Positions 28,028 through 58,100 of a stretch of DNA of 64,000 nucleotides are shown piece by piece. Source of the DNA: Takakia lepidozioides (Eukaryota > Plantae > Bryophyta); assembly GCA_030704615.1 (NCBI GenBank), contig CM060731.1, positions 33,170,001 to 33,234,000 of the forward strand, read 5' to 3'. How positions within the stretch are numbered: the first letter of the stretch is position 1; each line of letters opens with the position of its first letter. The translations under genes and the position numbers were made by a program. Under the pieces are notes generated by a model. The model did no database searches and was not told the DNA's origin. It was given only the letters and a program-made list of their open reading frames with translations.

Positions 28028-29522
28028 GTGTTGTTTGGAGTCTCACATTGCAGCAATACTGGTATCAACAGCAATCTTGTCCATCGCCAAAAAGCGCTAG
28101 TACTTGAATATTAGGAGCCTAATTTAGCCAACGTGGACTTGTCAAAATGTGCCACCTGCTAATTTAGCGACTTTTCCAACCCTACACCTTGTTTTCTCAC
28201 CACACGGGCGTAGGATAAAATTTACATGTGGCATTGTGGCGATTTTGGAGACATGAGACCAAAAAAAAACAAAAAACACTCACACACACATATGAAATGA
28301 TTACTTCACAAGTGAAGAAGACAATTAATTTAGTATATGTTAGGATCAAATCAGGACTTTATTTCAGGGTCTAAATGAGTATTTGCTCAATATTATATTT
28401 GTATATATCCTTCTTTGTTAACGAATTGGATCATACTAGGTTAACCTCACATCATGGTGTTTGTTTTCCATAGGGAGAAACAATAGACTAGAGAGACATT
28501 GTTTTGTTTTTCAATCCACAAATTTTAAAACCTCTTGTTTTAGATCAATAACCTCTTCTATACAAATACCAAAGTTTTATATATATATATATATATATAA
28601 GATCATATGTAGTCAAACCCCTCAAATAAGATAGAGCTACAATGTGTCCCTATTTATAAACAGACGCACTTTATTAACAAGACATTAATTTTGGGAATAG
28701 CTAGTATCCATGAGTCTTTTGTTGCCTTATGGTGAGGTTGGTGAAAGAGGTTAGTTTCATGCTCAATAAAGCTAGGGTCCTACCTACATCTGCATGATTG
28801 TACCAAGACTCGAACGAGAAGTCCATGATAACCTCTCACTGCCATTAACTAGGAGATCGATTTGTTACCCTTGAAAAAAAAAAACTCAAATTCACAATTG
28901 AAAGATTTAATGCAAAAAAATCACCAAGCTTTGTTGAAAGCTAGAAAGAATTAAAAAAACTAGAGCGTGACGAATTATTCTTGTAGAAGCCAATATTGTA
29001 TTTTATGGTGTCATTTCATCCCAACAGACTACATATCGTTTCCTATGGAGATTATGCAAAATAATTTTTTGGTCACAAATTAAAAGCTTCCCTAGCTATG
29101 GAAGGTGACATACTCAAACGCCTTCAATAGAGGTTGGGCAACTCTAGTGATGATTGAAGGTTGACGACTAGTTTTAGGGCACACACTAGAAAAGGCCCGG
29201 GACTTTAATGCGAGTCCTTCGGTCCTGCCTGCGTGGCACCCCCACAGCAGCCCCCCCTAGGGCTCCCTCGCGGTCGCTGCAGCCCGCCCCCCCTCCCCTC
29301 ATCCCATGGAATGTCGTTTATATAACACATGATACATGTAGGTCATGCACGCATCCATGCCAGATGTCAGATGTGGTCATGAACATAACATGAGCCCATA
29401 GTGAGAGTGAATCCAACACATGCGTACCCAAGTTTGAATTTCAAATTTCCAATTTGAATTTTAGTATTATTTAATGGACATGACTGTTCGTCTACTTGTG
29501 GGATTTAGGATCAATGTGTATG

Positions 29523-29796: not shown

Positions 29797-32613
29797 ATGT
29801 TGGTTGGCGAGAAATCTGAAGCCATCGTGTCCCATCTTGTTTTGTTGCTTCGAAACCAAGTGCAACTGCCAAATGCAGGTGCTTTCAACCATCATGTACT
29901 GCAGTGGCGTTTGCAATGGCATGGCAAGCCTCCTGGCTAAGCCTCAGCCCAAGTCGCCTACATTCCATGGAATCGCGTAGCTGATTTAATTACTGGGAAT
30001 CCTCCCGTACAGATGGCCCATGCACTTTCCACAGGCATCACCAAAGAGGCCATCCGGAGGGATCTCTGTTGGCTCCTCACACCAAAAGTGCTTTGACTAT
30101 GACAAGGTACATCTTGGGCTGCCGTTCATGTGTTGCAATGCCTATTCCATGATTTCCATGAATGCAGAGAGTGCCTGAGTCCCCTTAGAGTGATAGTAAC
30201 GGAATGTAGTTTGTGGTTGTAGGTATCACTGCTCATATGGTCCAGAGGACAGAACTACGGCCCTCTTGGATGCTACCCCTGCAATGGCACACAAGAAACG
30301 TCGAGCAAAACCTGCAAAGAAGAAGGGGAGGAAGCCAAGAGTCACAGCCGCTTCCACTGAAGCAAAGCCAAAACAAGCAAGGACCACACAAACAAAATCG
30401 GGGGAAGGCATCAAGAGGGGATGCATGTGCAGGTTTGTACTGAAGCAATGTTATGTGGACCTTGATATTGCAAAGCTGGTCTATTATGAAAAGAGACATG
30501 TCAATGGGGCTGGAGAGGTCTGCCATGGACCCACTCAGCAACTAGGTCGTGTTTCATTAGCTCCCCACTTGAGCGATGACATGAAATCCTAGGTGTTACA
30601 TAACCTACGTATGGGACTAAGCATCAACAAGATAATGGCAAAGCACACGCAGAGGGTGAGGGATATCATGGATGGGGGGTTGGAGGTTACTCGTGATACC
30701 TTCCTTCTTTCAAGTGACATCCGAAATATTGCCAACAAGTGCGATGGAGAAACTTTCAAAAAGCACTCCAATGATGCACAAAGTGTCTGAATGTGGGTGC
30801 ATGAAAACCCAGCAAGCATTTTCTACTACCAGGAAGAGTGTAATCACCTTGCGTGGACGTTGAATGACCGAAAATTGGACCTTCCATTTGTGCTTGGCTT
30901 ACAAACTGATTGGCAGAGAAAACAAATGCTCAAACACGGCCATCGTCACATAGTTACTTGTGATGCAGCCTTTGGAACGAATGAAAAAAAGGTTGCGGCA
31001 GTTTCTTAACCCAAATGTCCTCAAAGCTTGTCAAATTATGTTCTTCATGTGAACTTTTCTGTTCTCGTACCATTTCCTTTGAACTCACTTCAGTTACACA
31101 TGATTATTGTTGCAGTACCCCTTGTATACCATGATGGTATTCGACGACTGGCTGAATTGTATTCCAGTGGCTTACATTATCACTGCAAGGTGCAAAACCA
31201 TTGATCTTACGCCTTGGATGGAGGCACTTAACAAACAAATGACAAGTCTGCAGGTAGACTGGAGTCCGAATGCCTTTATTGTGGATGACGCAGATGCTGA
31301 AATTGTTGCAATTAGATACGTCCATGAACTCAGGCAATATACCTACCATGATCTCTTAGTTACACATGAATTTCAGTTTACCTGCCTGATAAGAGAATAG
31401 ATCTGTGTGGGGGGATTGTGCTGTTTTCTTGTGCTTGTGGTATGTTCGCCGAGCCTGGCAGAAGAATGTTGTAGCAAAGGTGAAAGACCCAGTAATGCGA
31501 GCGGCTATCTTATAAGACCTGGCACAGATCATGTATGATAGAAAGGAGACCTCTGGGGATGCAGGTGAAGCATGGGTCGTATTCAAAATTCTGGGCCTAC
31601 GGGAGAAGTACCCTTCTGAGACAGAATTCTGCACCTACATGGAGACAGAGTGGCTTCCAAAAGCCAAACTGTGGATGAAGGGATCCCGGAACATACCTCA
31701 TGCCTCTCAAGACACCAATGTTGCCATTGAAGCATACCACGGGAACCTGAAAGCGCAATTGAAGAGCACCAAAAGTGTCCTCGGTAGTAGGCGGGTGGAT
31801 TGGCTCATCTCTGAACTGACAGGTGATGTGCTAACCCATTACTGGTACATGTCACATGCGAAGGCTTATGGGTTCATCCGAAACAAGCGGCAGGAGGGAT
31901 TTGTTTGTACTTCTATTTTTCTTGCCAACGACATTCCAGATGCGAATGTGCACCTGCCTGACACATCCGGAGGCATTGCAACAGTTCAATGCCACCGCCA
32001 ATTGGGTATGACATATACTGTCCCCAATCCGGATTCTAAGTGGGGTTCCTGTGATTGTCATTGGGCACAGAAAGGAAATATGTGTGCACACCAGGTAAAG
32101 GTTTTGAAGATGCTCCACCCCCATGTGGAGGACGGGCTGATTGCAAAGTTGTGCGGATCCCTATTGGGCACATGTAAAGGTGGCCTCCACAACTTGCTAG
32201 CTGCCCATCAGTCCCCCTCTTCCATGCCTTCATCTTCACAAACTCCCCCAGGTCTGACCTCCCCTTCTATGGCTCACAAAACATCCGCTGGTACAAGTCC
32301 ATTGCCCAACCTACTTGCCCTTACCTCTACAGAGTGGGAAAGTATTCTTCAACTGACAGATACCAGCAAATTCCTCCAGCAACATCTTCTTGCATTGGTG
32401 AGAACTACGAAGGGAAAGATTTTGGACTTGACTGCCATGATGGAGGAGGGTCTTCAGTACCCTGGTGAAGACCCAGTTATGACTACTGTGGATGATGGGA
32501 ATGGAAAGTCACTTGCACGGTACAAAGACTTTCTGGAGAGGCATGGCTACACAGGCAATCTCCCATCCGTGCCGTCTCCCACCAGGAGCAAGAAGAGGTT
32601 GTACACTGGCTGA
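29797..32613 (+). pseudogene. MULE-type DDE transposase with SWIM zinc finger (At1g60560/At4g13970-like), decayed
   Basis: Exons about 29797-30106, 30223-30991, 31116-31315 and 31401-32613. Motifs VAYIPWNRV, YHCSYGPED, RGCMCRF, VTCDAAFGTN, FIVDDADAE, TNVAIEAYH and SWIM CDCHWAQKGNMCAH. Premature stops (e.g. 30590, 30788), frameshifts and a mutated donor site. Confidence 0.85.
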
Positions 32614-34698: not shown

Positions 34699-34936
34699 TT
34701 CAACATTCTGTTAACAGAAGCTTCATTTCCTAGAACTGAAATGAACGTTGTGTTAACACGAGGTTGTTTTCCTGGAACAAAAATCAACTTTGTGTCAACA
34801 CAAGGTTGATTTGAACATCTCCAAATCAACCTCGTGTTGACACGATGTTGTTTTCTTAGAACTAAAATCAACCTTATGTAGACACAAGGTGGATTTGGAG
34901 AACTTCAAGTCAACCTCATGTTAACACGAGGTTGAT
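34699..34936. repeat. Six palindromic units at exact 42-bp period
   Basis: 28-bp imperfect palindromes start at 34699, 34741, 34783, 34825, 34867 and 34909 (e.g. ATCAACTTTGTGTCAACACAAGGTTGAT), separated by 14-bp linkers. Confidence 0.9.
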
Positions 34937-35155
34937 TTGATCATCTGTCTATCTGAAGGTAGCTTCTTGTGTTTGCTAATGAAAAGAATAGGACAAACCA
35001 ATGCAACAAATGCGTTGACCCACGCATAGCAAAAATGTTAGAGGACATACATTGAGAGACACTGGACTTGAACAGTCATTCCATTACAAGTTGTAGTCAA
35101 GGAAAACACAGATTTCTTCATGTCAAGTGCATGTTGTCTATGGGCTTGTATCCTG

Positions 35156-36060
35156 CTATAGAAGTGTGTTGACTTCGTTGAAACTCATAGTGGCTTGGTG
35201 AATGAAGAAGTCGCGCTTTGGATCACAAACCATCTTTCTCAAGAAGACAAAGTACAGATGTTTGCACAGTATGAACTTCCCTCTCTTTCCCAAACTACTT
35301 GAAAGCATACCAACAAAATCAGGACGGATGCAATTGGGAAAATTGGAAACAGTGATGTCGTACGTCCTGTCCTGCAGCGCAGATGCGGATGAGATCATGG
35401 TGAAGACCCGACCATACCCTGGATCAGGTACTTCCATTGTTCCCGCAACACGAGCGTGAAGCATTCTCGCGGACTCGATTTTGCCGTAGTGTTCTGCGGT
35501 TGGAGGGAATCGTCGAACCAGCTTCCCATTCCGTCTGGTTGGCCACAAGTGAGCGTCAGGCGGAGGTACCCGTGAACCGCTTGAACTTGAAGCACCTCCA
35601 CGTGCAATGGAATGCCTGGCTAGGGAGAAACCCGCCTCTTCCAGCATTGCGATCTCTTGGTGAGTGAGACTTGTGCCCATCTTCATAGGCCACACGGTTG
35701 GTGGAGTAGGCTTCCTCACCACGGAGGGCCTCACTATCCCACGCACACATCTCCCACAATTGTCAACGCAGAACCAGAACTTGTGGTTCTTTGCCTCTCC
35801 TTGTCCGTAAGGGAGAAACAAACTAGTGAATGTAGGAGCTGCAGTGCGTTCTCTGCCTCTAGATATTAATGATATACATTTTTCATGATTGGTGGCCCTG
35901 ATCGCCGCGCATTTCACACGCGATCCAGCTTTGTGCATTCTATATGCCAAACCTCGTCCAAGCACATGGACTCCATTACATCCAGCACCATGTTCTGGTC
36001 TTCAACCATTGCAGTGATAGTGCTTGATGCAGGGGTCCGATCTGGGGCACTGGTCGAATG
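35156..36060 (-). pseudogene. Cys-rich protein with a C-terminal SWIM zinc finger (transposon accessory gene, 5'-truncated or fused)
   Basis: FWFCVDNCGRCVRG..PTVWPMKMGT and YDITVSNFPNC(I)RPDF..CKHLYFVF (second SWIM Cys mutated). Frameshift near 35940. Confidence 0.7.
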
Positions 36061-38611
36061 TGTGGTCGCTAACAACTTTTATTGCTTGTGTTTTTGAGTC
36101 CCTCTCAGGAGTTGGGAACATGTTGGTGTCTCTCACAAGTGGATCCGAATTCCAGATCTCCAACCACCTGATTTTGGTTGCATTGTCCACCATTGATATG
36201 GAAAGGTGATGCAGTTTTACTTGGGTCATTTCTTGCTTGGAGCCATACTTGTCATAATGTGCTTTCACCTGCTCCAGAAATTCCGTGCCCAGACTTGGAT
36301 CTGCTATGCGAATTTGTTTATCAAAGGCACTCATGAGGTTCTTCCTTTGATTGTTCATCTCAAATCTCATAATGTCCTCAAGCCCAGTTGCAGACCTCTG
36401 CTCTTCTGTATGGGATGCATAGTACTCTACTTTCGCCTTCAAACCAGTCTCTGCTATTTCTTGCTGCATACAGTACAGGGAGAAAGGATCAAACACTGGC
36501 GTTTCTTGGTAAAATTTACACTAACAACAAACAAACAGATGTCAAGAAGCTTACCATGTACATGTAGTCAAGAAAAGCCTCCCTTGTCAGGCTGTACCAT
36601 GTGCTTGTCTTCTTTTCAGCACACCTCTTCATCTGCTGAGGACTGAGCACGTTCGTGAATGACTCCAGTGGCATCAACCCTATCTTTTGGATACGGAATA
36701 GAGTATGGCAGAGATTGGTCGTCACATGGGAGGTTTCATTGGACCTGAAAAAACCTTCAACTCATAAGATGATTTCGAATTGTGAAAACGCAGATCGGGT
36801 GGGAACAAGGTTTGTATCTTACTTGTTTATGTCGTGCATGGCTGTCAAGAGCTGCGTGACACGTCCTTTGTGGTTGAGTACCATGGAAACCACGCTCCAG
36901 TGCCATTCGATCTCGTCCGAGTGCAAGCTTGAAATGTAATCCATCCAGACAAGCAGTCTATGGTTCCCATCTCAGACAAAAAAAACATCTTTCCCATAAA
37001 TGCTTTTGTTGAGGCCTTTTTCGACAGCTTGTGCTCAAATTCCCTGTTTACATCCCGCCAGCATGCATCCCAACTTTGCTCTATGTCCTCTGTTACAAGA
37101 CATTCATCTCCTTTCGTGTTCACAGTGGATACGTAGAACACTGCAGATCCCTTAACATAGCCGTGAACAAAATCGTTCTTCAACTTCGTGATGTCGTTCC
37201 TCAATATATGCGGGTTGAACCGCGGGCATGGAGATCATCCGGCATAGTGGGATAACCAGGTTTCTGCCGTGAACCTCCATCGACAAAATCAACTTCGAGG
37301 AGTTAACTTTTTGCCCCCCCATTACCTCCTCGGCCTTGTCTTCATAGTGTTCCTCAAATGATTCTTCCTCACCATCACCTTCTGCCACTACCACATCTCC
37401 CCCCACGGATTTCCTTTTCCTTTTCCTCTGCAAAGAATGAATATCCCTGCGAGTGACAGATTGAGCTCCCATGGATCAACCTTGCGTTGACGCAAGGTTG
37501 ATTGATGGGGTTCTAGCTTAGTCTGAAATGCATACTGGAACATTCCAGTGAACCCACTAAATGGTTTGCGTTGACGCAAGGTTCTTTTGATGGCTTCACA
37601 TAATCAACTTCCCCTACCTTGCGATTCATGAGACGGGACTTCGTATGCTGGGAATGAACAGAAGAGGCATCCAAATCAGCCTCGCGTCAATGCAAGGTTC
37701 ATTCGAGTGCTGCATCTGCTTCGTTTCGTGCCCAAAACATACACTTTAGAGGTCGAGATCAACCTTCCGTTGACGCAAGGTTGATGTCGAGCTCTCAGTT
37801 TGGCGTTCAAGAGACAAAAAAAGCAAATGGCAAAAGAGATTACAACTCTAGTTTCTTCTTCGCACTTCATGATGCATCGGGAGTATTCGTCTTTTTCATG
37901 GGGTCTGGAAGCAGCATGCTGCCAGGCAGATGCGGGTGGTGGGACTGAAAATAAGAGGCACCCAAATCAACCTCGCGTCAACGCGAGGTTAATTCGTGTG
38001 CTGCATCTGCTTCGTTTCGTGCCCAAAACATACAGTTTGGAGGTCGAAATCAACCTTGCGTTGACGCAAGGTTGATGTCGATCTCTCTATTTAGAATGGA
38101 ACATACAAAAAAAGGAAAAGGAAAAAGAGGGTTGATAGCCACCTCTGGTTTCTTCTTTGCACTTGATGATGCTCCGGAGGTATTCAACTTCTCCATGAGG
38201 TCTGGAGGCAGCATGCTGCCAAGCAGGTCCCTATGGTGGGAAACAGGGGCAGATGGCAGCGTACCCGCGTCCTCCTCTCCTCGCTGCTCACTCATGACCT
38301 AATTCTCCACTCGCAGTGCTTCCTCCCTAGCCCAACTGACTTCCTCATCCTCCCCTCCCTCTATTGGAGGTTGTTCTTGGGTCGCCTCCTGAATCGCTTC
38401 AAGACCTTCATCTCCAAAACGTGGTTGCAGACTCGGATTTTGCCCTTCGTCCTCATCTCCGACGGAGGTTTCCTCTCCCATTCTAAGTTCCCGTCTTGCC
38501 TTTGTCATCCTCTCCTTAGGGCGTGCCCTCTGCTTGTTTGATGTGAAATACAATGTTCTTCGACGCCTTCTTCTCCCTCGGGATGGGGGTCACCGTCTTT
38601 GCAGAATCCAC
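36060..38611 (-). pseudogene. ParB/Sulfiredoxin-like domain protein, spliced and decayed
   Basis: Acidic N-terminus and a KRKRK NLS-like motif, then IPLCRMISMPAV..DITKLKNDFVHGY..FFV(W>stop)DGNHRLLVW..LLTAMHDIN (DGNHR at 36971-36957). GT..AG introns at about 36822-36745 and 36554-36467. The DGxHR box is the hallmark of the ParB/Srx fold. Confidence 0.72.
37475..38076. repeat. Six copies of the 28-bp palindrome ATCAACCTTGCGTYRACGCAAGGTTGAT in intronic sequence of the ParB-like gene
   Basis: Copies at 37475, 37566 (partial), 37675, 37758, 37966 and 38049. Includes an approximately 290-bp tandem duplication (about 37660-37930 vs 37950-38225). Confidence 0.9.
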
Positions 38612-39276
38612 GGTTGCAGTGAGAAGAAGGAAAAAAAGGCACTACGGGAGGTTCATCGCAAGGCCAACCACGCCAAGATGATCACTCGAAATGACCTCAG
38701 CGCCACATGCTCATTCCACATGCATGGCGGACACGTGTCCAATTGTCTGTTATGAATATCGCCGGAGATCATTTATTCCTCATCCACCGACATTCGTTCG
38801 GGTCGACCTCTCATCCACAAAAGTTTATTAGTGGGTATCCGCTTTTGGGGTGTTTCAGAGGAATGTGCAGTTGGTACAGTTGTACAGCGGTGCAGTTGCC
38901 GTTAATATTAAATGGAAATGGGCACCTCTTCTGGCCTCTTTGACATGACAGCCAAATGGCGGCTCTGTCAGTCAAAATTGCTTAATACGTTGTCCAAGGC
39001 ACTGGTGGGGCACCTGTAAAAAGAGAGTCGGATTTTTTAATTGGGACTGGAATTATCCACTCCGCATTTGGGCACTCTCTGACCATTCACTTGGTTCGCA
39101 TGTCCACACATTTCTTTGATGTGCCGAACCGCGTTGGGAGACCTGCATGCGAAAGCGACACCTGCAATTGTGTGTAAGGACGTCTTGTATACAGCCAAGA
39201 AACTCCACTCTAGTACAACCTATAAACAGAAGCAACATTGGACTTTGAATTGCGCGCTTTCAAGCAACATTGACAG

Positions 39277-42200
39277 ATGGCCTCCCAGGCCGTGGGCTCC
39301 CTTGACGCGGACTTCTTAAGTGAGGACCACCTTGTGCCATTTTCTTACGAGGTGGATGATGACGGTTTTGTGGTGGTGCATGAACACGTGCTCGCAACGC
39401 AATTTCGGTTGGAAAATGGAACTCTATTCCTCGAAAGGGAAGTGTACGATGCCAATGGAAATCTGCTATTCTTATGATCTGTCTTGCTGCAGTTGGAAAA
39501 CCGAGTGGTGGCTGCACTTGGGGAGTCAATGGCAGACTACAAAATCCAGATGGCTTTCCCCCGGATCATACAGGAGGCCTATATCAGGAGATGGAAGCTT
39601 GCTGTCTGGAACAACTATTTCTTCAGGGAGTTTGAGAGAGACAAAGGAATCTCCAGATCCTATGAATTCAAAAACCAGTACAACAGTGAGCAAGCAATGA
39701 AACGAGTGTTGTACAGGTGTGACCTCCAAGAATCAAATGTGGTACTAGAAGTGTATGTTTCAGTATTCTTGTGTCGTGTTTTCTATGGACAATTTCGAAT
39801 ATGCATGTTTTGAGGGAGGTGTGAAGGCTCTGGACGTACAGCCGAGCAACATTGCGTTAACACAAGCTTAAATCCCGGCTGCCACGAATGTGGTTTTTGT
39901 TTCACTTTTCTGTACCTGGGGTATCCAATGATGTCATTTCTGCATTTTAAAGTGAAAAAACCACAAGGCAAATCAACCTTGCGTCAACGCAACGTTGATG
40001 AAGGGGCAGGCTATGTAGGTCTTCCTGTGTTTTGGTACTGTTGTTTGCTGTCGTTTCCAGTTCCGCTACTGCCAGGATGAACATAAAGTCTGTTTGGAAT
40101 GAAGAGCTGTTTAGAGCTTACACTGTACCACCAAACAGCCTTGCGTTGACGCAACGTTGTTTGACGGTATGGATAGCTAGAAATGTTCTGCAGAAATGGC
40201 CCGATTTCCATAGAATTATAGGAAAGTAAAAGTTATCAAATACCATGGAAAGGTGTTTTCAGTAGAGGTATTCAACTTGCGTCAACGCAAGGTTGAATAT
40301 CCATACAAACAGATCTTCGGATGGGTGTTTTCTGGCACTGTTTTCCATTTTTATGTTCATGAAAACAACCTTGCATTGACGCAATGTTGAATTCCACTTG
40401 TCAATCACTGTCTTTTTTCATGCAACATTATCATATGTGGATCCGCCGATCTACTTTGCGTCAACGCAAGGTTGATTGGGGATTCAATTTTGTGCATACG
40501 ATGGATTATGATAATGGGCTTTCCCTCTCGTTAGTGCTCGTTGAAAGTGCAGTTCTCCACATTTGGTGTTTTCCTTTTCAGCTCGAATCAACATTGCGTC
40601 AACGCAAGGTTGATTCGGGCTGATAAATGTTAGTTTCGACGACTTGCTGATCTGCATTTGAATACCCTTCTCGTGAGGTGTGATCTGTGTGCTGTTCAGA
40701 TCGTATTACACTGGGTTTTGGGTGTGTGTGATTCAGGTACATGTATCATGTTCTCATACCGGGAAAGTACCTTAGAAATGACCCTGATTTCATCTACTCA
40801 TGGGCTGACCCCTCCAACGACAAGACAATGTACACGACTGGTATTGCCAGAGACTGGAGCAGGGCACACTTCAGAGACTGTGGATGGTACCTCGATCTGC
40901 CAAAATAGGACACACCATTCGATGAAGTGGTTTTGAGAAACCTTAACGACAACGCCGCGGCACTTGCCCCGCTTACTGACAAAGACATTCAGGACAGAAT
41001 CATTCAAGCTCTGGCTACAAAAGAGCCTGAGAAAACTGCTACTCCAAAACGGAAGGGGAAGATTGTCGGGGAAAGGGAAGAGTGCAGCTCCGCAGGAACA
41101 GGGCCCGTCAGAGGTATACAACCTTCTCCAACGAGGAGGGATAGGAGAACAGCGAGGGAGCAGCCTTTCGAGGCGAGATAACATTCATCCAGGGTTTTGG
41201 GCCAGTTCCATCGTAAGGTTGAAAGATGAAAGTTTTCTGGCAATAATGGAATCCATGAAGTCCACATTCAAAGGGGTACCATCGAAATCATGGGACATGC
41301 TTGTTTCGTTCCTTACTCAGGTAAGCACATATGTCTTAACTGTGGTATGAATGATATTGTTTTGGCAATTCGTTCTGGCTTGTCAACGGGATTGATTTCG
41401 TGTTGTATTTGGTTAGGCTTATGACATTATCTCTTGTTTTTTGTTACAGGTCACAAAAAGGCCAGATTGGGTGAATGGAGTTCAGCAGGCATACACGACT
41501 GACCTTGTGGTGCTGGACATTCTTGACGGTTGCCTGTCCCTGATGTGTTGCCTTCCAATGCAACCCCCACTTGGAACAAATTCCTTTCTAACTCGGGGGC
41601 TCTTCTTCTCATGCAGTCAAAGGACATGTCGGCACGGAGAACTCTTTTCAGCTACATGAAAGCTTCCGGGTTTCGTGTCATCAAAACTTAGACATGCATC
41701 AACACTCTGCCTCTTACGAAGGGCGAGTTCCCGGGGCAGAAAGTGAGTTGGTTCCTTTGAATTAAAGTTTCGTGGTTCTTAAGAAAGTGTCAAAAGAAGT
41801 GTATGTTTTTTTGCTCATGCTCTCTTCGTGATTTTTGGCAGACTCGGGTGTTCAAAGCTTTGTGCCTGGTGAGGGTGTGGAAGGACACTCTTCCTCCTGG
41901 TATTGCTGAGTTCCAGTTGAGGGACCTTGCAGCTCACATTGACCCCACCTGCGAGCCTGTGGAGGATGATGTAATCTTCAATTACGTGGACTCGGGCCGA
42001 ACTACGAAAAGGTCGACTGGTGTCCCTTGGAGAGGTGCCCGGGAGAAATCCCCGGCTTTCATGCAGACTTTGGTGGAGACATGCAGCCGTCACGGTGGAC
42101 AAGTGGTTGACTTGTCTATTGGCATAGGTGGGGCCCTGAACTCTGTATTTGAAATATGGGCAGTGGGCTTAGGGAAGCCCTGTTTTAATTTCTCGTTCCT

Positions 42201-42401
42201 CTTCGATTTGCATGAGCATCTTTTCATGCGTGCAAAAGCGCCGGAAGGCACTTCTTCGGCATGGAGGCTGATACAGAGCTCTTCTCAAGCGAGCTTCATC
42301 AGCTTGAGACGGACACAACATGTCCCCATCCACAGAGGCACCTCTGGAGGAGCCCGAAGCGCCTGAGGAGGATCTCGACGTGGACTCCGATTTTGAGTGT
42401 G
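39277..42401 (+). pseudogene. Beta-class (circularly permuted) N4-cytosine/N6-adenine DNA methyltransferase-like gene, spliced and decayed
   Basis: The reconstructed C-terminal domain from exons about 41450-41742, 41842-42127 and 42214-42401 reads TDLVVLDI(L)DG (motif IV position) ... PWRGAREKSPAFMQTLVETCSRHGGQVVDLSIGIG|ASFHACKSAGRHFFGMEADTELF. This matches the motif X-I-II pattern KPxxLxxxLI..S..G..VLDxFxGxGxT..A....GR..xGxExD. Stops, frameshifts and one dead acceptor site. Confidence 0.78.
39845..40614. repeat. Seven copies of the same 28-bp palindrome in the first intron of the methyltransferase-like gene
   Basis: Copies at about 39845, 39972, 40134, 40270, 40364, 40449 and 40587. Confidence 0.9.
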
Positions 42402-42579
42402 AGTAAGTTCAGCTTCTCGTCATTCAATATATGATGCATTTCCTTGTGTCATTCCCGTTTGACACTTGGTTGCTTACATGGCATATTTCTGGGTAATGAC
42501 ATCTACCACCATTCCTCTTCTTGCTTTCCAGAGTTCGGCACCAGTCATCGAATCAGTAGACACCTTTCGGTTTCCAAGG

Positions 42580-44620
42580 ATACTTGTCGCGTTAGACAGA
42601 GTGAGAAAACATCTAATCAACAACGGCAGATCCCCTGTGTTGAGATCTTGGAGAGGAGCAAGGAGGCATGCTTCTGACGATGAATAGGAAGAGGAGGCCA
42701 TGGAGGTCGGTCAGGATATAGCTTCAACAAATGGAGGGATTAATCGAGACCGTGTTGCCGGAATCGTAGGACAGCCTCACCGGACACATGGACAACTGGA
42801 CATGAATGTTGAGGTGCAGCACATGATCCAAGAGACCTTTCAGATCATAGACACACCTGAAATTGCAAAGGGGCCAGAAGTGGAGTTAGATGATATAGAT
42901 GTTCAATGTGACACGAACACCCTAGAAGAAGCCCATGACCCGATTGCGGGTGGGGACTCTCGCACTGATGATCCCATCTCATTGGAAGAGGCATGTCTAC
43001 CTTTATATGAAGGCTGTAAATCCTCTAAGCTTGTAGCCACCATGCTTATAATGAATCTATGTGCAACACATGGGGTTACAAATGGCTTTGCGGAGGAAAT
43101 GTTATCTTTGCTGCAGAAAACCTTTTTGCCACAACCAAATGTACTACCCACATCTTTCTACCATGCAAAGACCATGGTGAGCAAGCTTGGGCTTGCTTAT
43201 GAGAAGATCGATGCTTGTCCAAAGGGGTGTGTGTTGTTTAGGGGGGACTTGAAAACTTCAGAGAGTTGCCCCAAGTGTCAAAGCGCACGATTCAAAAAAT
43301 GTGGGGAGATCCAAGGTACCTATGAAGGTGCTTCGACATTTTTCTTTGATACCACGCCTTTTGCGTATGTATAAATGCTCTTCTATTGCAGAATTAATGG
43401 CCTGGCACAGTCCACTACAACATATCGCGGTAGTTATGACTGCCAAACCGTGGTAGTCATGGTTTTCTTGACTTTGACCATGACTGCACCATGTTTTTAT
43501 ATAAAATTGACCTCCCGCAGTCGTTCATACGACTACAGTCGTATGAACGACTATCTAAGTAGTCGTCTGTATGACTACATGGCTCCGGAATGGGCGAAAG
43601 GCTGGTCAACGATAATTGACCAGATTTAGCTCACCATTCATAGTAATTTCCATGACTACAATGTACATGGATGAGGTTACATAGTCATGATGACTACTGG
43701 GGATTTTGTAATTTGGTGTGTATAATACAATCAAAACACCATATGATCATATGAATGACTAATGGGTGTATTGGTTAGCAGATAGTGAACTATAACTTTT
43801 ATAATAAAGAGGTTGCAGGTTCAAACTCCTCTAAGTACAATCAAATGGATAAGATGGCCCTAGGGTTAGTAGGCGAGCTAGGAATAGCACGTGATACCCT
43901 AGATGGGCTGTCACGTGGTTTTTTTTAAATTATAAAATGCATTATGCCACGTGGCACAATGCGGTGCGACGCGACGCGACGTCTGACATATGTTTTTATT
44001 TTTTTTAGTTTTTTTTTTAATTTAACTTTTTTTTTAAATCAATTGCGTCTTGTCACGTGGTGCGGCAGCACCAACTGGAGTATGGTATATATGACTGCAG
44101 TGAGAGATATCACTTGGTTCATCTGACTGTAGTCATCTGGACCTACCATCCTGTACTCATTGTATTCACTTGGTTTGCACAACTTACATTCATAGAAGTC
44201 ATATGTATCGTTTATGACTGCAGAATAGTTATATATACAGTCGTAAATACCGCGATCTGTTGTAGTGGTCGGAATGCAAGCAACAATGGCCTTGTGCGCC
44301 ATGCAGCTGATTCAAAGGCTTGGAAACACATTGATGCTATCTGGCCCGACTTTGCAGGAGAGCCTCGCAATGTAAGGCTTGGTTTATCCTTCGATGGAGT
44401 CAACCCGTTTGGTGATAAGAACAATTGCTGGTCAACATGGCCAATGTTGACGCTGGTATACAACCTACCTTCGTGGCTCACTACAAAGAAGTTCTTTGTC
44501 ATGCTTACTCTCTTGATTCCAGGAAAGCAGTCAGTTACAAGTGAGCACATAGATGTGTGCTTAGCACCACTGATGGAGGAGTTACTTGTTTTGTGGAGGA
44601 GGGTTCGGGCATATGACATA
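42580..44620 (+). pseudogene. CACTA/En-Spm TnpD (Tnp2, Transposase_21) N-terminal half
   Basis: PLYEGCKSSKL, LPQPNVLPTSFY, YEKIDACPKGCVLF, CPKC. After removing the nested MITE the frame continues WHSRNA..HAADSKAWKHID..EPRNVRLGLSFDGVNPF..STWP..YNLP. Truncated at about 44620. Confidence 0.92.
43413..44267. mobile_element. Non-autonomous CACTA element nested in the Tnp2 gene
   Basis: 30-bp TIR CACTACAACA(T/G)ATCGCGGTA.. and 3-bp TSD GTC. Excision restores the Tnp2 frame. Confidence 0.93.
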
Positions 44621-46481: not shown

Positions 46482-49400
46482 TCTGTGAAGCCTACCCCCA
46501 ACGAAAAACCTGAGCTCCGTGAAGGAAGACAAATAATTAGGAAAATATCACCCTCCACTGCTGGGTGAAAAACCTACCAAGGGAAAACCTGGCACCTGCA
46601 AGTTGGGCCGAGGACAAAACCCCTGGCTAGGAAAACCATGCAGGGAGTACAGATGGTGAGATGTCATAGAAATGTTCTAAGTCCTAGAGAGGTCAAGTCC
46701 GAGGACCCCAAGAGTCGTCAGCCGCAAACTAAAGACTAAGCCGCGGAGAAGAGAAGTGGAGTAAACTGAAGTAGATCGCTAAGAAGATCAAGACATCACC
46801 CCACCGTGCGCCCCTCCACATTGATACATGTGAGATAAAAAAACTAGCTCAGAATGCACCAAGTCTGTCAAGGAAACAGGTTCATTCCGCACTTCAATGT
46901 TAGAGCCTTGGGGAAGAATAAGAGCACGTCGTCCACGTAAAATCTGATAGATCAAGTATGGACCGTCGATCTTGAGCTTAGATTTGCATGCATGCTTGCC
47001 ATGCTGTAATCGAACGCACAGGTAACTGTTACCACTCAACGCATTGGTAACTCTACTTTGGACAGACCTCATGTTGTGCCACAGGTACATGTTACCACTC
47101 AACGCATTGGCAGCTCTACTTTGAATGGACCTGCTGTTGTGCCACAGGAAAGTCGCCGACCTGAAGACCACATTGTGAAGGAGGTACATGTTGCATCTTT
47201 AAGTAGAGAAGAGGCCATAGATGGATTTGTCAAGGCGTCCTTGCTGCTGACCTCGGATATTGTTGTGCCTCCGAAACCCGCACCTGTTCCATGCCCAGGA
47301 CTCACCTATCTAATGAAGTATGGCTTGCTGCCCGAGGGATTCCCTTCTCTGGATGATGCTTCTTTCCCGGACCGCCTTGTTGCACTTATTGGGAAATTCG
47401 AGTTTTCAGACCAAATGATAGGCACTGCCTTTGGTCAATGGTGGCTTAAGGCACGGGTATGTACACCTTCTTTCTGGTCCGCACCTTCTTTTACATGTTC
47501 CTTTCCTTCATGATGCGTGTCTCTACAATTTGTTTGAAGTTCCGAGCTGTAGTAAGTTTACTATGACTGCTGAAATGAACCTTGCATCTCGGGGGCCGTC
47601 CTGGAGTATGTCGTGAGCATATTGCTTAGTTGAATGAATGCCAACGTGTGTTTGCACATCACAACTATACCAAGGCATTGCTGGATTATGAACTCAAATT
47701 GGTTGCAGCTCAGTCTCAGTTGGAGGCTCGTAGAAGGCTGTTCGTGGATGAGAACATTGCAAAATGGGATAGAGAGCAATATGACGTCAAACAGGAGGGA
47801 GTCTGGGGCTGGTCCCCTCTGTACCAAATTATTACAGAAGGTGAGATCCCTGAGGTGTTGCCCATTATGTTCACACATGAAGAGGACGAAGCCGAGAGGT
47901 TGATGGTCAATCTGGTCTCAGCTCGGAAAATGCTCCACCTCCAAAGGTGCCGCTAATCATACGGATATTGCATCAGATTTGGATGTGTCAAGTTCACAAG
48001 AGATCACCTCTTTCCATTCCCCAAAACCTGGTTTTGGAAAGCCTACAACACCATCTTCTGAATACGCAGGATGGTCATGGTGCCCTCAGAAATGCCAGTG
48101 ACAACTTCCTCAAGATTGGATATTTTCTGTACGGTGCCGTGCCCCCATATGAGGAAGCCTGGATTATGGTGCAGGGGGCGGTTGCAGCCCTTGTGGGTGT
48201 GAGCAATGAGGACTGCGATGGAGTTGTTCATGAATTGGAAGAGTTCATGCGTGAGGTCCGCTGCAGACCTGTGCGTGACCTCGTTGTACTTAATCCGAGT
48301 GCCTCCAAGATGTTATGGTGTGGGAGTGCAACAAGTGAGGGTGCAGGGGCCAGGAAAAAATTCGTGCAAGACTTCATTCATATTCTGGGACATCGGGAGG
48401 AAGTCGACATTGGGATGGCTTCCTTGGCCACCAGGTCTGTATTGGCCTTACATTTTGCTGCGATATGCATATTAGATTGTCCTGCTTAGTAACAATGTTA
48501 ATGTGCTTGTTTTCACCTGTTTGCAAATGTCACTATAACATATACTAAATGCATTCATACTTCTGCATGTTCTTTAGATTACGGGGAATCCAGCATACAT
48601 GAGAACAGCCCGGCAAAGCCTGCATGATGTCCACATTGAGAGGCATGCAAGGGATGAGGCACGTTTCTCCAAACCTCCACATGAAGAGCGAAATTCGGGT
48701 ATCCTCGAACGTCAGTCACAAGACGCACGAGGTCCACCTCCCAACAATACGAACATGGGGGCACTCATCCTCGCTACTGATATGGCATGCTCAGGCATCA
48801 TTTCTGAAGACATGTCAATTATGCTGGTGGAACATGTGTTGCAGGATCCTCTCCTCCCTCAGCCCAAACACAACACTAATCCTGAATAACCATGTGATGA
48901 CATACACTGCCCAGAACCAGGTCCCATGACTCAACCTGAAATGCAACTAAACACCAGTCAAGTATTCCCTGACTTGTCTGGACCGCCTCCCCCTGTGGCG
49001 TCTTTTACTTCTGAACAAACCCTCTTTCACATGAGTGACTTCAACAGTCCTCCACCCCTTAGTACGCGATATCCGACTGATGAAGATGTCATTGTACATG
49101 CAGTAAGCAATGTCGGATCTTCCGTAACCCCAGCTAATTCACTGGTTAACCATGGGACAGAGCCTCCCACCGCCAATGTGATGGTTTTGGCAGTGCCTTC
49201 GCCCTTGCGTCCTTACCAGCTCCTATTTGTTGGTGATCATACTCCTCACAGTACAGAGGCTACTACACGATTTCAAGGTGATGTAGATGGCAGCGTGCGG
49301 GCATTCGATAAAAACGCAATCTCCGTCACTATTGCCAAACCCACTGCCATCCATACCACTGATGCTGCCAAGGCAAAGGATGCGCTTCCCCCACCAGCCC

Positions 49401-50274
49401 TTGCATGCCAGCGCAAGAAAACCATGTCCAGGTAACCAGTACCATTCTGCTTTTATTACTTTGAAGGTCTTCCCTCTCCCGATTCCATGTGCTGCATGTA
49501 CGTTCTGTAGTATGCATTCACACATTGTGCTCCTGGATGTGCAGGATACATGATGGCCTCGAAAATGTATTGTGAGTTCGAAGCCCATGCACCCTTATTT
49601 CCTGAATGATATGGTATACCTTCAATCCTTAGTTTACAAGTCCCCATTATGTGCATAATTATGTGGCCTCATTTTCACATCACATTCTCTGTGCCTTTTT
49701 TGCAGGCTCCGATGTGGTGCACTCGTCAAAAAAACCACTGACATATGGTTTTTGAAGGGCTCGGTGTTCCGGTGGTGCCTCTGAAACTAGAAGATGCAGA
49801 TGACTTGCAATCTAGAAGAGGCTGGATAAGTGATCGTCTCATGGACTTCTGGGTGTTAGCTAAACTGCTTTCTATTCCCGAAGATGTGTGCAATAAAATT
49901 CATGTGTTAGATAGCTTTACATGGATTTGCCTTTGCGATCATTGTGCCAAGTATGGCAATGGAGTGGAGTCTGTACGGACTTGGATGCAAAGAAGATTCC
50001 CTAACCTGAGTTCTGAGGGTGTTGAAGCCGTTATTGTGCCAATTGTGGTCAAGTGAGTTTCATGTGTAGCCATTACCCCTTCTGCTGAATGCGCCTTGCA
50101 ATCGCACTCTTGCATACAGAACTGGACTAACCTGCTCGTGTTTCCCTGTTCTGCAGCTTTCATTGGAGTGTGGTGATTTTGGAATGGACTCTCTACATTC
50201 ACTTGAATAGCATGAAAACCACACACAAGCACTGGAAGCCATTGTTTACTATGTTCTGGACCATGCTTAGAGAA

Positions 50275-51401
50275 GAGGGCATCAAAGGTATGAGCAGAAC
50301 CCGTGAGCAGATTCCCCCAAGCGTGAGCAGATTATTGATGCGGACCCTAAAAGCGGGGGAACAAGTGGGCCTATTGCCGTGGATACAAACTCCACTGCAA
50401 CGGCGTAATCTTCTCTCCATCGAACCGAAGACAAACAGACTCCATGACGACAATGTGGCATGAATGTCGATGAAAAACTGTCGCATGACTGTATCTATGA
50501 TGAACGTAAAAGGGAATGGATGAACATTGGATGAGTGTCGGATGAAAAATTGCCCAGATGAGTGAACCATGGATGACTGTAACAATATGTGCGTAGGGAT
50601 CCATGTGTTGTTGAGTTTAAACAAGTGTATTTTAATTTGGCGGAACTTAATTCTGGCCCAGAAGACCAGCCAGATTAAGTTGGCGTCAATGCCACCTTAA
50701 TCTGGCACATTCAAAGAAGAAAAAACAAAAAATATTAAAAAAAAAATTTTTGTTTTTTTTAATTTTTTGGAAAACTTGCAAATGAACCCAACCCCTGCTT
50801 TGCAAGCAAAAGACCTGGCGTTCACCCAGCATGGATTTCTGGTCACCTGGAGGAAGGACATGACAACAAATCATAAGCCAAGCAATTTGTAGATGCCATT
50901 CATCCCAAATAGCGCACCAGAAGACCAATCAGATTAAGGTATCGTTGACGACACCTTAATCTGGCACATTCGGGGAAAAATAATAATAATAATTTATTAT
51001 TATTATTATTATTATTATTTGAAAACTTGCAAATGAACCCAGCCCTTGCTTTGCAACAAAAGACCTGGCATTTACCCAGCATGGATTTTTGGTCACCTGG
51101 AAGAAGGACATGACAACGAATCATAAGCCGAGTAATTTGTAGATGCCATTCACCCCAAATAGCACACCAAAAGACCAGCCAGATTAAGGGCCAGATTAAG
51201 GTGTCGTTGAAAAAAATTATATATATATATTATTTTTATTTTTATTTTTGGAAAACTTGCAAATGAACCCAACCCCTGCTTTGCAAGCAAAAGAGCAATT
51301 TGTAGATGTCATTCATCCCAAATAGCACACCCAAAGACCAGCCAAATTAAGGTGTCGTTGACGACACCTTAATCTGGCACATTCGGGGAAAAATAAAATA
51401 A

Positions 51402-51446
<45 letters not shown>

Positions 51447-52703
51447 AACCTTGCAAATGAACCCAACCCTGCTTTGTAAGCAAAAACCTTTTACCCGGCA
51501 TAGATTTCTGGTCACTTAGAAGAAGGACATGACAATGAATCATAAGTTATGTGGTCCGAGCAATTTGTAGATGCCATTCACCCCAAATAACACACTAGAA
51601 GACCAGCCAAATTAAGGTGTCGTTGACGACACCTTAATCTGGCACATTCGAGAAAAAATAAAATAAAAATAAAAATTGCAAATGAACCCAATCCCTGCTT
51701 TACAAGCAAAAGACCTAGCGTTTACCCAACATGGATTTTTGGTCACATGGAAGAATGAGATGACAACGAATCATAAGTTATGTGGTCCGAGCAATTTGTA
51801 GATGCCATTCACCCCAAATAACACACCAGAAGACTAGCCAGATTAAGGTAGATTAAGGTGTCGTTGACGACACCTTAATCTGGCACATTCGCGGAAAAAT
51901 AAAAATAAAATAAAAATAAAATTAAAATTAAAATTGGAAAACTTGCAAATGAACCCCACCCTTGCTTTGCAAGCAAAAGACCTGGCGTTTACCCAGCATG
52001 GGTTTTTGGTCACATGGAAAAAGGACATGACAACAAATCATAAGTTATGTGGTCCAAACAATTTGTAGATGCCATTCACCCCAAATAGCACACCAAAAGA
52101 CGTTACAGATGTCATGTTATGCGGAGGCTGCAGCTTGCAAATTTAGTCTCATCTCTGCTCCCCCTCCTGTGCTTTACAATAGAGAGGATTTTGTGCAGAG
52201 CAAGGCTAGTGTCTTCATAGACAGTTCTTCCTTCGTTTTGGACTCCGACTCCAGTAGTAGTGGATATTCTTTTCGGAATGAATCGGCTGTTTTCAAACGA
52301 TTTATATTAAAGCACCAAATGGCCTCTCCACCTTCTTTGCAATTGGGTGTCAGCATCTTTCTCGACTTAGGATACCTGGTGAAAGGACAACCACAACCCT
52401 CTGTAGTTGGCAGAGGTTCACTCTGGAGCTTGGGGGATTTGGCAACCACTACTCCAAAATGCTTTTTAATTTTGCAGTCAACCACAAACTACATTCATCC
52501 ATGTGCCATTCGTCCAACATACATTCATCGCCCATTCATCCGTCATTTATCCATAACGATGATTTGGTATGCATGTTATACTGGACACTACCCGCAATAA
52601 TGGGTCCTCTAAGCCGAATAGGTGTCCGCGGTTATAGGTGAGCACATCTAGAAGCGTGAGCAGAATTCTGCTCACGGATTCTGCTCACTGTTTAGCAATC
52701 CCC
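50275..52703. mobile_element. Non-autonomous MULE-like element inserted in the Ulp1 exon
   Basis: 9-bp TSD CTTAGAGAA (50266-50274) / CTTAGAGGA (52704-52712) and imperfect TIRs with the core TGAGCAGAA(C/T)CCGTGAGCAGA. Removal restores the Ulp1 reading frame. Confidence 0.8.
50660..52100. repeat. About six tandem units of roughly 260 bp, each with a 38-bp palindrome and a variable A/T microsatellite
   Basis: GCCAGATTAAGGTGTCGTTGACGACACCTTAATCTGGC variants at 50669, 50928, 51190 (half), 51341, 51606 and about 51850. Confidence 0.9.
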
Positions 52704-55188: not shown

Positions 55189-58100
55189 GTATGGAATGGC
55201 CCATTGCGAAGAAGTAGTCGCTTGAGTGCAAATACTCATGTTCACATGGGTGTGGGGGAGAAGGAGTCGAGCGATTTGGAGAAGAATTTGGAGGAGGATA
55301 GTGCTGCGACTTGTAGTGCAGACTACTCCCCAGAGAGCGAGAGCGCGGAGGAGGAGGACGTGGATAGTACTGACAAGCTTGAGCAAGCTCGTCCACAAAT
55401 GACTCCTGCCAAGCAGCCTACTAGGACTGCCACCCCCACTAAGGAGGCTAACAAGATGGCGGTGGGATCCCTAAGACCTCTCGCTTCTCTCTCTCTCTCT
55501 CTCTCTCTTCCAAGGTAAGTCACATTACCTTTCGTACGAGTCTTACAAACCTAGTTTTTGACCATGTTTAATTCTGTAAGTACGCTGGTTGGGTGGTGGT
55601 GAGGGCACCTTCTTCTTCAACCTATTGTAGCCTGTTTTTCCCTCTCATCAGACTCAGATATCAATGCATGTTAAACCCTAAAGTTAGCTGGTTGGGTGGT
55701 GGTGAGGGCACCTTCTTCTTTAACTTATTGCAGCCTGTTTTGCCCTCTCATCAGACTCAGCCGTGAATGCATGTTAAACCCTAAAGTTAGCTGGTTGGGT
55801 CCTCATGAGGGCACCTTCTTCTTTGACCTATTGCAACCTGTTTTGCCATGTCATCAAACTTGTCCCTGAATGCATGTTGAATTCTATTAGTTAGCTGGTT
55901 GGGTGGTGGTGAGGGCACCTTCTTCTTCAACCTATTGCAGCTGCACTATTGCCTGTTTTGCCCTCTCATAAGACTCACCCTTGAGTGCATGCTGAATTCT
56001 GCAAGTTAGCAGGTTGGGTGGTGGTGGGGGCAGCTTCTTCTTTGACCTAATGCAGCCTATTTTGCCCTCACATCAGACTCCGCCCTGAATGCATGTTGCC
56101 ATTCTAAAGTTAGCTGGTTCCGTGGTGGTGAGGGCACCTTTTTCTTTGACCTACTGTTGCATGGTTTGCCCTCTCATCAGACTCAGCCCTGAATGCATGT
56201 TGAATTCTGTAAATTAGCTGGTTGGGTGGTGGTGAGGGCACCTTCTTCTTTGACGTATTTTTGCATGTTTTTCCCTCTCATCAGACTCACCCTTGAGTGC
56301 ATGTTGAATTTTGCAAGTTAGCAGGTTGGGCGGTGGTGGGGGCAACTTCTTCTTTGACATATTGCAGCCTATTTTGCCCTCTCATCAGACTCAGCCGTGA
56401 ATGCATGTTAAACCCTAAAGTTAGTTGGTTGGGTGGTGGTGAGGGCATCTTCCTCTTTGACGTATGTGTGTTATGTTTTGTCCTATCATCAAACTTGGCC
56501 CTGTCAAATGCATGTTGAATTCTACAAGTTAGCTGGCTGGGTGGTGGTGAGGGCACCTTCTTCGTTGACCTATTGAAGCCTGTCTTGCCTTGTCATCAGA
56601 CTCGGCCCTGAATGCATGTTGAATTCTGTAAGTTAGCTGGTTGGGTGGTGGTACCTTCTTCCTTGTCGTATTGCAGCATGTTTTGCCATGTCATCAGACT
56701 CGGCCTGAATGTATGTTGAATTCTATAAGATAGCTGGCTGGGTGGTGGTGAGGGCACCTTCTTCTTCTACCTATTGCCGCCTGTTTTGCCCTGTCATGAG
56801 ACTCGGCCCTGAATGCATGTTGAATTCTGCAAGTTAGCAAGTTGGGTGGTTGTGAGGACACCTTCTTCTTTGACGTATTGCAGCCTATTTTGCCCTCTCA
56901 TCAGACTCGGCCCTGTCAACTGCATGTTGAATTTCTGGAAGTTAGCAGGTTGGGTGGTGGTGATGGCACCTTCTTCTTCAACTTATTAAATAGTGAAAGG
57001 GGTTTTTTTAAGCAGCGAGACTTTCTTGTCAGATCTATCAACATGAAATTGTACCTGTAAGAATGAGTGTACTCCCAAGATGTTGTTTGCAGTTGTTTGC
57101 CGTGCCCATTGATCCCGCGCCCACATTGTTTGGTCAACAAAGGTACAGGAAGAATTCCCTTGGTAGATTTGACGAGAGGGTCTCTCTGCTTAGAAAACCC
57201 CGGACAGTTTAGATTTTCAGAGAGAGGGAGGGAATCAGCTGCAATACAACTTGGTTTTGTCATGGTTTTTCAACTACAATAGTGGGTACAGATAGGCTTA
57301 CCCCCACTGAGTTTAAATTCAATCTACTTTGCCCTCTCATCAGACTCGGCCCTGAATGCATGAGGGAGGGTATTTTGGAATGGGCAGTGTACATTTTGTA
57401 ATATGGAAATGGATGTGGGACATTGCAAGGTTGCCAGAGAACGACGTTCCATGCATTCACAACATCGGATGCCAAACATTTTAAAGCACATTGTGCCAAG
57501 GTCTATATGCGTTCATTGCTTGCATGCAGGTTCAACTTTTGCCATGCCACTTCATTTTTTCCCTAAGTTCCAACTCTGTGGGGTGGAGGGGCTTGTGTTA
57601 GGCTACATCAAAGCGTGCAAAGGAAGGGGGACCTCAGGCTGTGGCTCCTGCTGCAGGTCCACCTTCGACATGGGTGCAACAGGCCCCGAATGGGCCATGG
57701 CTACAGTCCACAGGCGGGCAAACGTCGCTGAGCAAGGACCGCCTACCTGGCAGCAGCCCATGGCCCCACTACCCATAACCAATTCATGGTCATGGATACC
57801 AGGTGGGTCCAATTCCGGAGGTAATGGAGCATGGGTACAAGGAGCTGCCCAAACTTGGGCACCTCCTTGTCCCACTGCTAGTGGGCAGTGGGCAGGCCCC
57901 CCTTTTAATGGTGGTCCTCCTCCATTCACACCCCCTCATGGTGATGATCACGATTCCACACAGCAAGGGGATGTGCATTCTGAGGCTGCAGACAGAAAAT
58001 GTGCAAAGAGGCAGGCTTCAAAGGCACAAGACACTAATCCCAAATCCCGAAAGGCCGCTGGGCTGAAGGCGCACAAGGTACAACTAAACTCTAAGGGGGC

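Follow-up and report, generated by a model that had tools for sequence, protein, structure and literature searches.

A window of 64,000 nucleotides of the moss Takakia lepidozioides (assembly GCA_030704615.1, contig CM060731.1, positions 33,170,001 to 33,234,000 of the forward strand) carries a decayed copy of a multi-copy, intron-containing gene, which lies upstream of the remains of a CACTA transposase and whose product is predicted to be built like a prokaryotic beta-class amino-methyltransferase. In all the relatives examined the key catalytic residue is replaced by an acid, and therefore the protein would likely bind DNA for a moss transposon instead of methylating it. To this reading as a whole, in which the protein is a dead, DNA-binding accessory of the transposon, we give an even chance. 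The features concerned, in window coordinates, are the following.

39493 to 39716, plus strand: exon of the N-terminal helical domain (Y-x-x-x-W-[RK]-x-x-x-W ... KR-x-L-Y-R), identified by tblastn (homologous protein P0022, E 3.6e-5; homologous locus L020, E 1e-6).
40737 to 41320, plus strand: exon continuing the N-terminal domain with its second part (CGWYL), and also encoding a linker of low complexity.
41450 to 41742, plus strand: methyltransferase-like exon 1, with motif IV, a conserved W-N and motifs V-VI, identified by translation and splice-site inspection.
41516 to 41530, plus strand: position of motif IV, DILDG in the window copy, DIPDG in other copies and D-x-P-[DE]-[GN] in homologs, aligned on DPPYN of CcrM.
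41842 to 42127, plus strand: methyltransferase-like exon 2, with DDV-x-x-N, motif X (WRGAREK) and motif I (DLSIGIG, 42109-42127).
42214 to 42406, plus strand: methyltransferase-like exon 3, with the end of motif I, motif II (GMEAD) and an acidic tail.
42592 to 44620, plus strand: remains of a CACTA/EnSpm transposase, consisting of what we take, by its motifs, to be an N-terminal piece and of a Transposase_21 domain (44288-44620; PF02992, E 2.8e-37).
34743 to 40612, no strand assigned: 18 copies of a palindrome of 24-30 bp in three clusters, with none elsewhere in the window.

The initial annotation of this stretch, made from its letters alone, had placed at 41450..42300 a bacterial-type beta-class methyltransferase domain that appeared only after splicing three exons and correcting a frameshift. 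The exons at 41450-41742, 41842-42127 and 42214-42406 agreed with this, their translation contained the reported DI(L)DG at motif IV and SIGIG at motif I, and the proposed motif order IV ... X-I-II (beta permutation) was recovered both in the exon translations and in the fold modelled for a homolog. The domain exons do lie within that interval, but the gene has two more exons upstream, reaching to about 39493. Neither these exons nor the 45-nt deletion, the second frameshift and the transposon context described below had been mentioned. The exon at 39493 starts at the same exon border as in the homologous locus L002, and an uncertain start codon is the ATG at 39277, from which the gene would extend from about 39.3 kb.

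Lesions were found along the whole coding region. The exon at 40737-41320 has a premature TAG (40906-40908) and a frameshift near 41150-41180, and methyltransferase-like exon 1 has a -1 frameshift at about 41532, a TAG at 41689-41691 and an in-frame deletion of 45 nt at 41575-41581. The intron at 41743-41841 keeps GT-AG borders; in the one at 42128-42213 the acceptor is AT (42212-42213) in the window copy and AG in other copies. Exon 3, from 42214 on, contains motif II within ASFHACKSAGRHFFGMEAD and has a further frameshift near 42316-42324. The window copy is a pseudogene, with frameshifts, stops, a deletion and a lost acceptor. Single exons of the window gave no match in Pfam, NCBIfam or PDB, while the spliced model scored 164.9 bits against a profile of 29 homologs, compared with -2.3 for the reversed sequence and 3.5 for the best reported shuffle (332 of 500 shuffles were reported); this control is partly circular, because the 29 homologs came from searches begun with the window.

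Public contigs of the same species were compared over 40600-42700 (2.1 kb), runs X1 to X3 being from one sample. In the DNA run X1, 1223 contigs fell on these 2.1 kb in four identity bands, from 99% to <90%, a depth which is not to be taken as a copy number. At position 41523 all four runs showed C at full depth, which gives DIP, and since no variant at 41525-41527 reached 1% among these contigs, the family state is DIPDG, as the initial annotation had guessed for the ancestral motif. By the same contigs DIPYG was rejected as the family state. The explanation of DILDG as mere pseudogene decay was also rejected, the Leu alone being due to decay. The contigs also mend the lesions of the window copy, with an additional base near 41532, a G at 41690 (Trp) and a G at 42213 (AG acceptor). 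ILDIPDGLP is also encoded by divergent contigs, which use other synonymous codons for it. Motif IV is degenerate in one loose end, made up of 2 contigs. In a run only guessed to be of RNA, a contig of 440 nt has 42127 followed directly by 42214, and DLSMGTG is read in a loose end; this weakly indicates that a paralogue of the window gene is spliced. None of the runs on record as RNA contained the 40600-42700 stretch.

A first word-index protein search gave no homolog. Using phmmer against 1.84 billion representatives, 41 clusters (50% identity) were obtained at E <=0.001, and further searches added seven proteins and 20 metagenome loci. The four named homologs are all hypothetical proteins of Ceratodon purpureus, with locus tags on chromosomes 1, 6 and 9, and the two Ceratodon clades share only 34% identity. 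The intron positions after motif VI and within motif I recur among homologs. In a tree made by a quick method from 43 rows of family members only, with seven near-duplicate loci excluded, the window sequence falls into no well-supported group. The family is old, diverse and mostly missed by profile annotation.

Motif tallies were made on distinct rows, which are not independent because many stem from near-identical loci. At motif IV the first D was present in 23 of 26 rows and the P in 25, and the aromatic position was occupied by E (23/26) or D (3/26) and by an aromatic residue in none. The initial annotation had described the aromatic as lost in the window copy, and these 26 rows out of 26 with an acid confirm it; the missing aromatic is a trait of the family, not decay of this copy. 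In motif I (F-x-G-x-G), F was found in 1 of 52 rows; 26 had the first G and 44 the last, and position 4 was often W or L. Motif II retained its acid (E/D) in 17 of 17 rows. In motif X the K was kept in 59 of 62 rows and R/G/E/K in 56-60 of 62, and the His was replaced. One homolog, P0048, retained a motif I of DIGAGTG. The family therefore is not filed by us as a beta-class amino-methyltransferase, though built like one, since it is devoid of the catalytic motif IV, (D/N/S)-P-P-(Y/F/W), and of a typical motif I, even with the motif II acid present.

The possible consequences for catalysis were considered in the light of the bdelloid enzyme N4CMT. According to the available text of its structural description, the Tyr of motif IV is modelled to stack the target cytosine, the Phe of motif I lines the adenine pocket, and Phe280, His253, Pro109, Trp142 and Asp301 touch the cofactor analogue (PMC10406627); the change of SPPY to APPA is reported to abolish activity (PMC8885841). 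We infer how these contact residues map onto the moss family, and from the tallies and the mapping it follows that the family would be without the base-stacking residue and part of the S-adenosylmethionine (SAM) pocket, the rest being kept. Binding of SAM or S-adenosylhomocysteine may persist, given that the family retains the acid of motif II, the second Pro with the Trp after it, and the Lys of motif X. To judge from these residues, the transfer of methyl groups to N4 of cytosine or N6 of adenine has quite probably been lost in the family.

The fold was studied on the AlphaFold model of the Ceratodon homolog P0012, which was confident over about residues 401-622. Foldseek matched it to CcrM (E 8.5e-10), and structural alignment with VIA gave CcrM the highest score (Z 13.9, root mean square deviation 3.6, 190 aligned residues), followed by MboIIA (13.7), BceJIV (13.2), PvuII (13.0) and N4CMT (12.4). 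Proteins of the MT-A70 group, the chains of METTL3-METTL14 and MTA1-MTA9 included, reached Z 9-11. The identity as a C5 methyltransferase was ruled out, as those enzymes did not exceed 6.1. The model therefore predicts a beta-class amino-methyltransferase fold with permuted order, motif IV preceding X-I-II. At the sequence level, the family profile aligned advPegl onto ADPPYNL of CcrM (E 1.3e-4). The initial annotation had made its assignment depend on a profile match and on the SAM-binding motifs: PF01555 matched 9 of 47 homologs and only P0048 passed its gathering score (35 vs 26.7 bits), and whereas motif II was intact, motif I was degenerate. The N-terminal 259 residues were modelled as a helical domain (mean predicted local distance difference test score 69.8), for which Foldseek gave nothing at E <=0.001 in PDB or BFVD, the best VIA score was Z 5.0, and no usable match was found in Atlas.

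Selection was examined with 14 sequences (13 of the 20 loci and the window), of which 21 of 91 pairs, none of them including the window sequence, had enough shared codons and unsaturated synonymous divergence. The ratio of non-synonymous to synonymous substitution rates was <1 in all 21 (0.07-0.52), and in seven long divergent pairs it was 0.07-0.11. The domain is under purifying selection and its unusual motif IV site is maintained.

Regarding the transposon, the Transposase_21 domain lies 1.9 kb downstream of the methyltransferase-like gene on the same strand and is interrupted after about 44644 by a fragment of a gypsy integrase (rve, E 2.2e-6). In locus L019, too, the gene is followed by Transposase_21 on its own strand. 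The junction near 42584-42593 is peculiar to the window copy, as indicated by loose ends of contigs. A GC-rich inverted repeat pair with CACTAGAAAA, at 29167-29290 and 45242-45100 (82% over 123 nt), encloses 16 kb; it could mark the two termini of a large element, or be another repeat that is present twice.

The clusters of palindromes comprise 5 copies at 34743-34911, 6 at 37477-38051 and 7 at 39847-40589, the last inside the long intron of the gene. Different palindrome arrays flank the homologous gene in L002/L003 and L017, compared with 0 of 60 shuffled loci. They are made of 20-bp palindromes with a spacing of about 73 nt or 128 nt (L002, 34-182 and 3769-3916; L003; L017, 1208-1592), and in L002/L003 they stand on both sides of the gene. 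Six of the 18 centres in the window family are GTTGAC, six GTCAAC and three GTTAAC, and an unrelated palindrome family at 50658-52101 has the same GTTGAC/GTCAAC centre in common with it. Such centres are as would be expected if a central CpG in a perfect palindrome had been deaminated.

Next to the gene, a divergent one was also recognized:

35156 to 38590, minus strand: broken gene with an acidic start, a DGNHR piece (36971), a helical piece (36325-36113) and a SWIM-like end.

We take the DGNHR piece to be ParB-like and the end to be SWIM-like by their motifs, labels which found no support in Pfam or PHROGs. The helical piece is homologous to residues 17-86 of three Ceratodon proteins (E 1.5e-10 to 1.7e-6), the later residues of which match the plus strand from 39478 onward. 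Two explanations offer themselves: the 5' halves of two divergent genes were exchanged when about 36.1-39.5 kb became inverted, or the module is common to two paralogues.

Elsewhere in the window, the host genes are a nucleobase permease (PF00860; 3255-8911, plus strand) and a gene with the plant calmodulin-binding domain (PF07839; 14561-15109, minus strand). A broken gene at 47000-50460 (plus strand) ends in a segment presumably of a ULP1-like protease, judging by its motifs and with no Pfam match, and a Transposase_24 (En/Spm) fragment at 57364-58527 (plus strand, E 1.3e-5) follows a tandem array of units of about 105 nt at 55563-56990.

Comparison with known systems placed the family close in architecture to prokaryotic beta-class enzymes (CcrM, M1.MboII, M.BceJIV, M.PvuII and M.RsrI; PF01555), with which it shares the predicted fold (Z 11.6-13.9), the permuted order, the motif II acid, the second Pro and the motif X Lys. 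Unlike them, it is only 9-17% identical in structural alignments, lacks (D/N/S)PP(Y/F/W) and the motif I Phe, and has spliceosomal introns and a helical N-terminal region of about 260 residues. The best phage and plasmid matches of P0048 were DNA methyltransferases, at 22-30% identity among the matches listed, which upholds the bacterial-type resemblance noticed initially; such an identity is too low for a donor to be named. For P0035 no match was found among phages, and pattern scans yielded no relatives among 12 matches in viral contigs or among 22 in prokaryote genomes.

Among eukaryotic proteins, MpDN4MT1a/b of Marchantia is described as a tandem pair of host genes with TSPPY encoding an active, sperm-specific writer of N4-methylcytosine (4mC) (bioRxiv 10.1101/2021.02.12.428880). 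Like the moss protein, it comes from a bryophyte, belongs to the beta-class fold family and has its motifs in a prokaryote-like order, and the moss family differs from it in D-x-P-[DE] and in its many copies, the comparison being by description and not by sequence. The bdelloid N4CMT, with SPPY and a chromodomain, is reported to silence transposons for its host (PMC8885841, PMC10406627). It is also an intron-containing eukaryotic beta-class domain and a structural match, whereas the moss protein is without the catalytic aromatic and adjoins a transposase. Because both writers have (T)SPPY, the initial placing of the window protein beside them was not supported. DIRS1 and long terminal repeat (LTR) retrotransposons also bring prokaryote-type methyltransferase domains to eukaryotic mobile elements, those of DIRS1 being described as likely inactive (PMC4738411) and so a precedent for a dead domain. 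Such domains are non-beta (PCIF1/DAM-like) or C5 domains within retrotransposons (PMC4738411, PMC5890265, bioRxiv 10.64898/2026.05.21.726589), in contrast to the moss beta-class domain, which is encoded by an intron-rich gene of its own, next to a DNA transposase. The portion available of the 2026 DAM preprint (bioRxiv 10.64898/2026.05.21.726589) contains no mention of CACTA, 4mC or moss, and the supplements of PMC12973397 contain no match to N6_N4_Mtase or PF01555. A literature search, outside which lie the 2025 journal version and the supplements of the DN4MT1 study, returned no description of a family with a beta-class domain that lacks the aromatic and lies next to DNA transposases.

TnpA of En/Spm and VANC of VANDAL are element-encoded accessory proteins that act on the repeats of their own element. 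The likeness to them would lie in a possible accessory role only, no sequence or fold relation having been found.

The preferred reading can be formulated as follows. A prokaryote-type beta-class enzyme would have lost its base-stacking aromatic and would have been retained as a DNA-binding module in a CACTA-type element, the palindromes of which it would recognise, probably as a dimer; the beta-class enzymes tested are multimers, usually homodimers, according to the available text of PMC10406627. We find it fairly likely that the gene is a working part of the element and not a mere neighbour. That the protein binds the palindromes, helping transposition, expression or escape from silencing, is a tentative and rather doubtful proposal. 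Between the two options of the initial annotation, a dead decoy fits better than an active enzyme with unusual chemistry, because none of the 26 rows for motif IV has the aromatic and just 1 of 52 for motif I has the Phe. Several observations weigh against the preferred reading. Outside the window the linkage to a transposase was seen in 1 of 20 loci and in a degraded copy, most loci having <2 kb downstream; no transposase was seen in the 2.7 kb that follow the gene in L010 or the 1.8 kb that follow it in L017, and no contig spans both gene and transposase. Palindrome arrays are missing in 17 of 20 loci, most of them with short flanks. The CACTA-containing inverted repeats at 29167 and 45242, candidate ends of the element, have no matching target duplication, and remains which we take, by their motifs, to be of an intron-containing Mutator-like element (MULE) transposase lie nearby (30200-32613, plus strand), with only a weak SWIM match in Pfam (E 0.052). 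In addition, the position-4 acid, which is invariant, and R-G-x-[RK]-E-K, which nearly is, suggest that a functional site has been maintained and has not decayed, the first Asp and the motif II acid survive, and P0048 keeps its motif I and passes PF01555.

These last features are what would be found if the intact protein were an active SAM-dependent enzyme, with a rewired Asp-x-Pro-[Asp/Glu] and RGxREK loop, acting on a non-standard target or carrying out another SAM reaction on DNA or RNA of the element. The strong purifying selection, the W or L at position 4 of motif I, which might substitute for the Phe, and the raised N6-methyladenine that accompanies transposon-borne DAM enzymes in other lineages, according to the available part of bioRxiv 10.64898/2026.05.21.726589, are compatible with it as well. 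We nevertheless regard this as unlikely, given the joint loss of the motif IV aromatic, of the Phe in motif I and the His in motif X, and of the first glycine in half of the rows. All active amino-methyltransferases known to us keep an aromatic at position 4 of motif IV. A related and equally speculative proposal is that a phage-derived methyltransferase, perhaps fused to ParB, had its site rebuilt to Asp-x-Pro-Asp/Glu and performs on its own palindromes a SAM reaction new to eukaryotes, or reads methylated bases there. For the comparison with ParB-methyltransferase fusions, the DGNHR piece, presumably ParB-like, sits on the divergent gene carrying the N-terminal helices of the family.

Inactive partner subunits are known in METTL14 and MTA9, and the family might consist of such partners of a separate active methyltransferase or, in most lineages, of domesticated host chromatin factors. 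This would agree with the METTL3-METTL14 and MTA1-MTA9 chains met as structural neighbours, with the age and diversity of the family, to which the two Ceratodon clades testify, and with the absence of a transposase at most loci. We hold this to be quite improbable, as true N6/N4 enzymes outscore the MT-A70 group, the window yielded no further methyltransferase gene, and the copy number and the many decayed copies fit a mobile element. The gene could also be a passenger, or part of another element (the upstream MULE-like one, or an element fused by deletion to the CACTA fragment), and contribute nothing to CACTA transposition: the region is crowded with fragments, only the window copy has the junction at 42584-42593, which no contig bridges, and the palindromes end at 40.6 kb, with none on the far side of the transposase. 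The recurrence of the gene order on the same strand in L019, and the purifying selection among paralogues, which speaks against a neutral passenger, leave this explanation with little probability.

To our knowledge, beta-class methyltransferase domains for N4 of cytosine or N6 of adenine have been reported in very few eukaryotes. Land plants have few N6-adenine methyltransferases, according to the available text of a 2016 survey (PMC4738411). The locus of the window is itself dead, yet it points to an apparently undescribed family under selection, which has intact members in Ceratodon, is fixed for a non-canonical active site and is likely linked to DNA transposons. Weak PF01555 matches in bryophytes should accordingly not be read as 4mC writers. 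If the family is dead as an enzyme, a transposon would be reusing a bacterial enzyme as a DNA-binding accessory, and if it is active, new chemistry would be involved. Should the unlikely origin from a phage enzyme with a rebuilt site be true, bacterial amino-methyltransferases would have had a third, transposon-borne way into eukaryotes, and the strategy against silencing would be new. The intact Ceratodon genes allow direct tests of both the dead and the active reading in a transformable moss.

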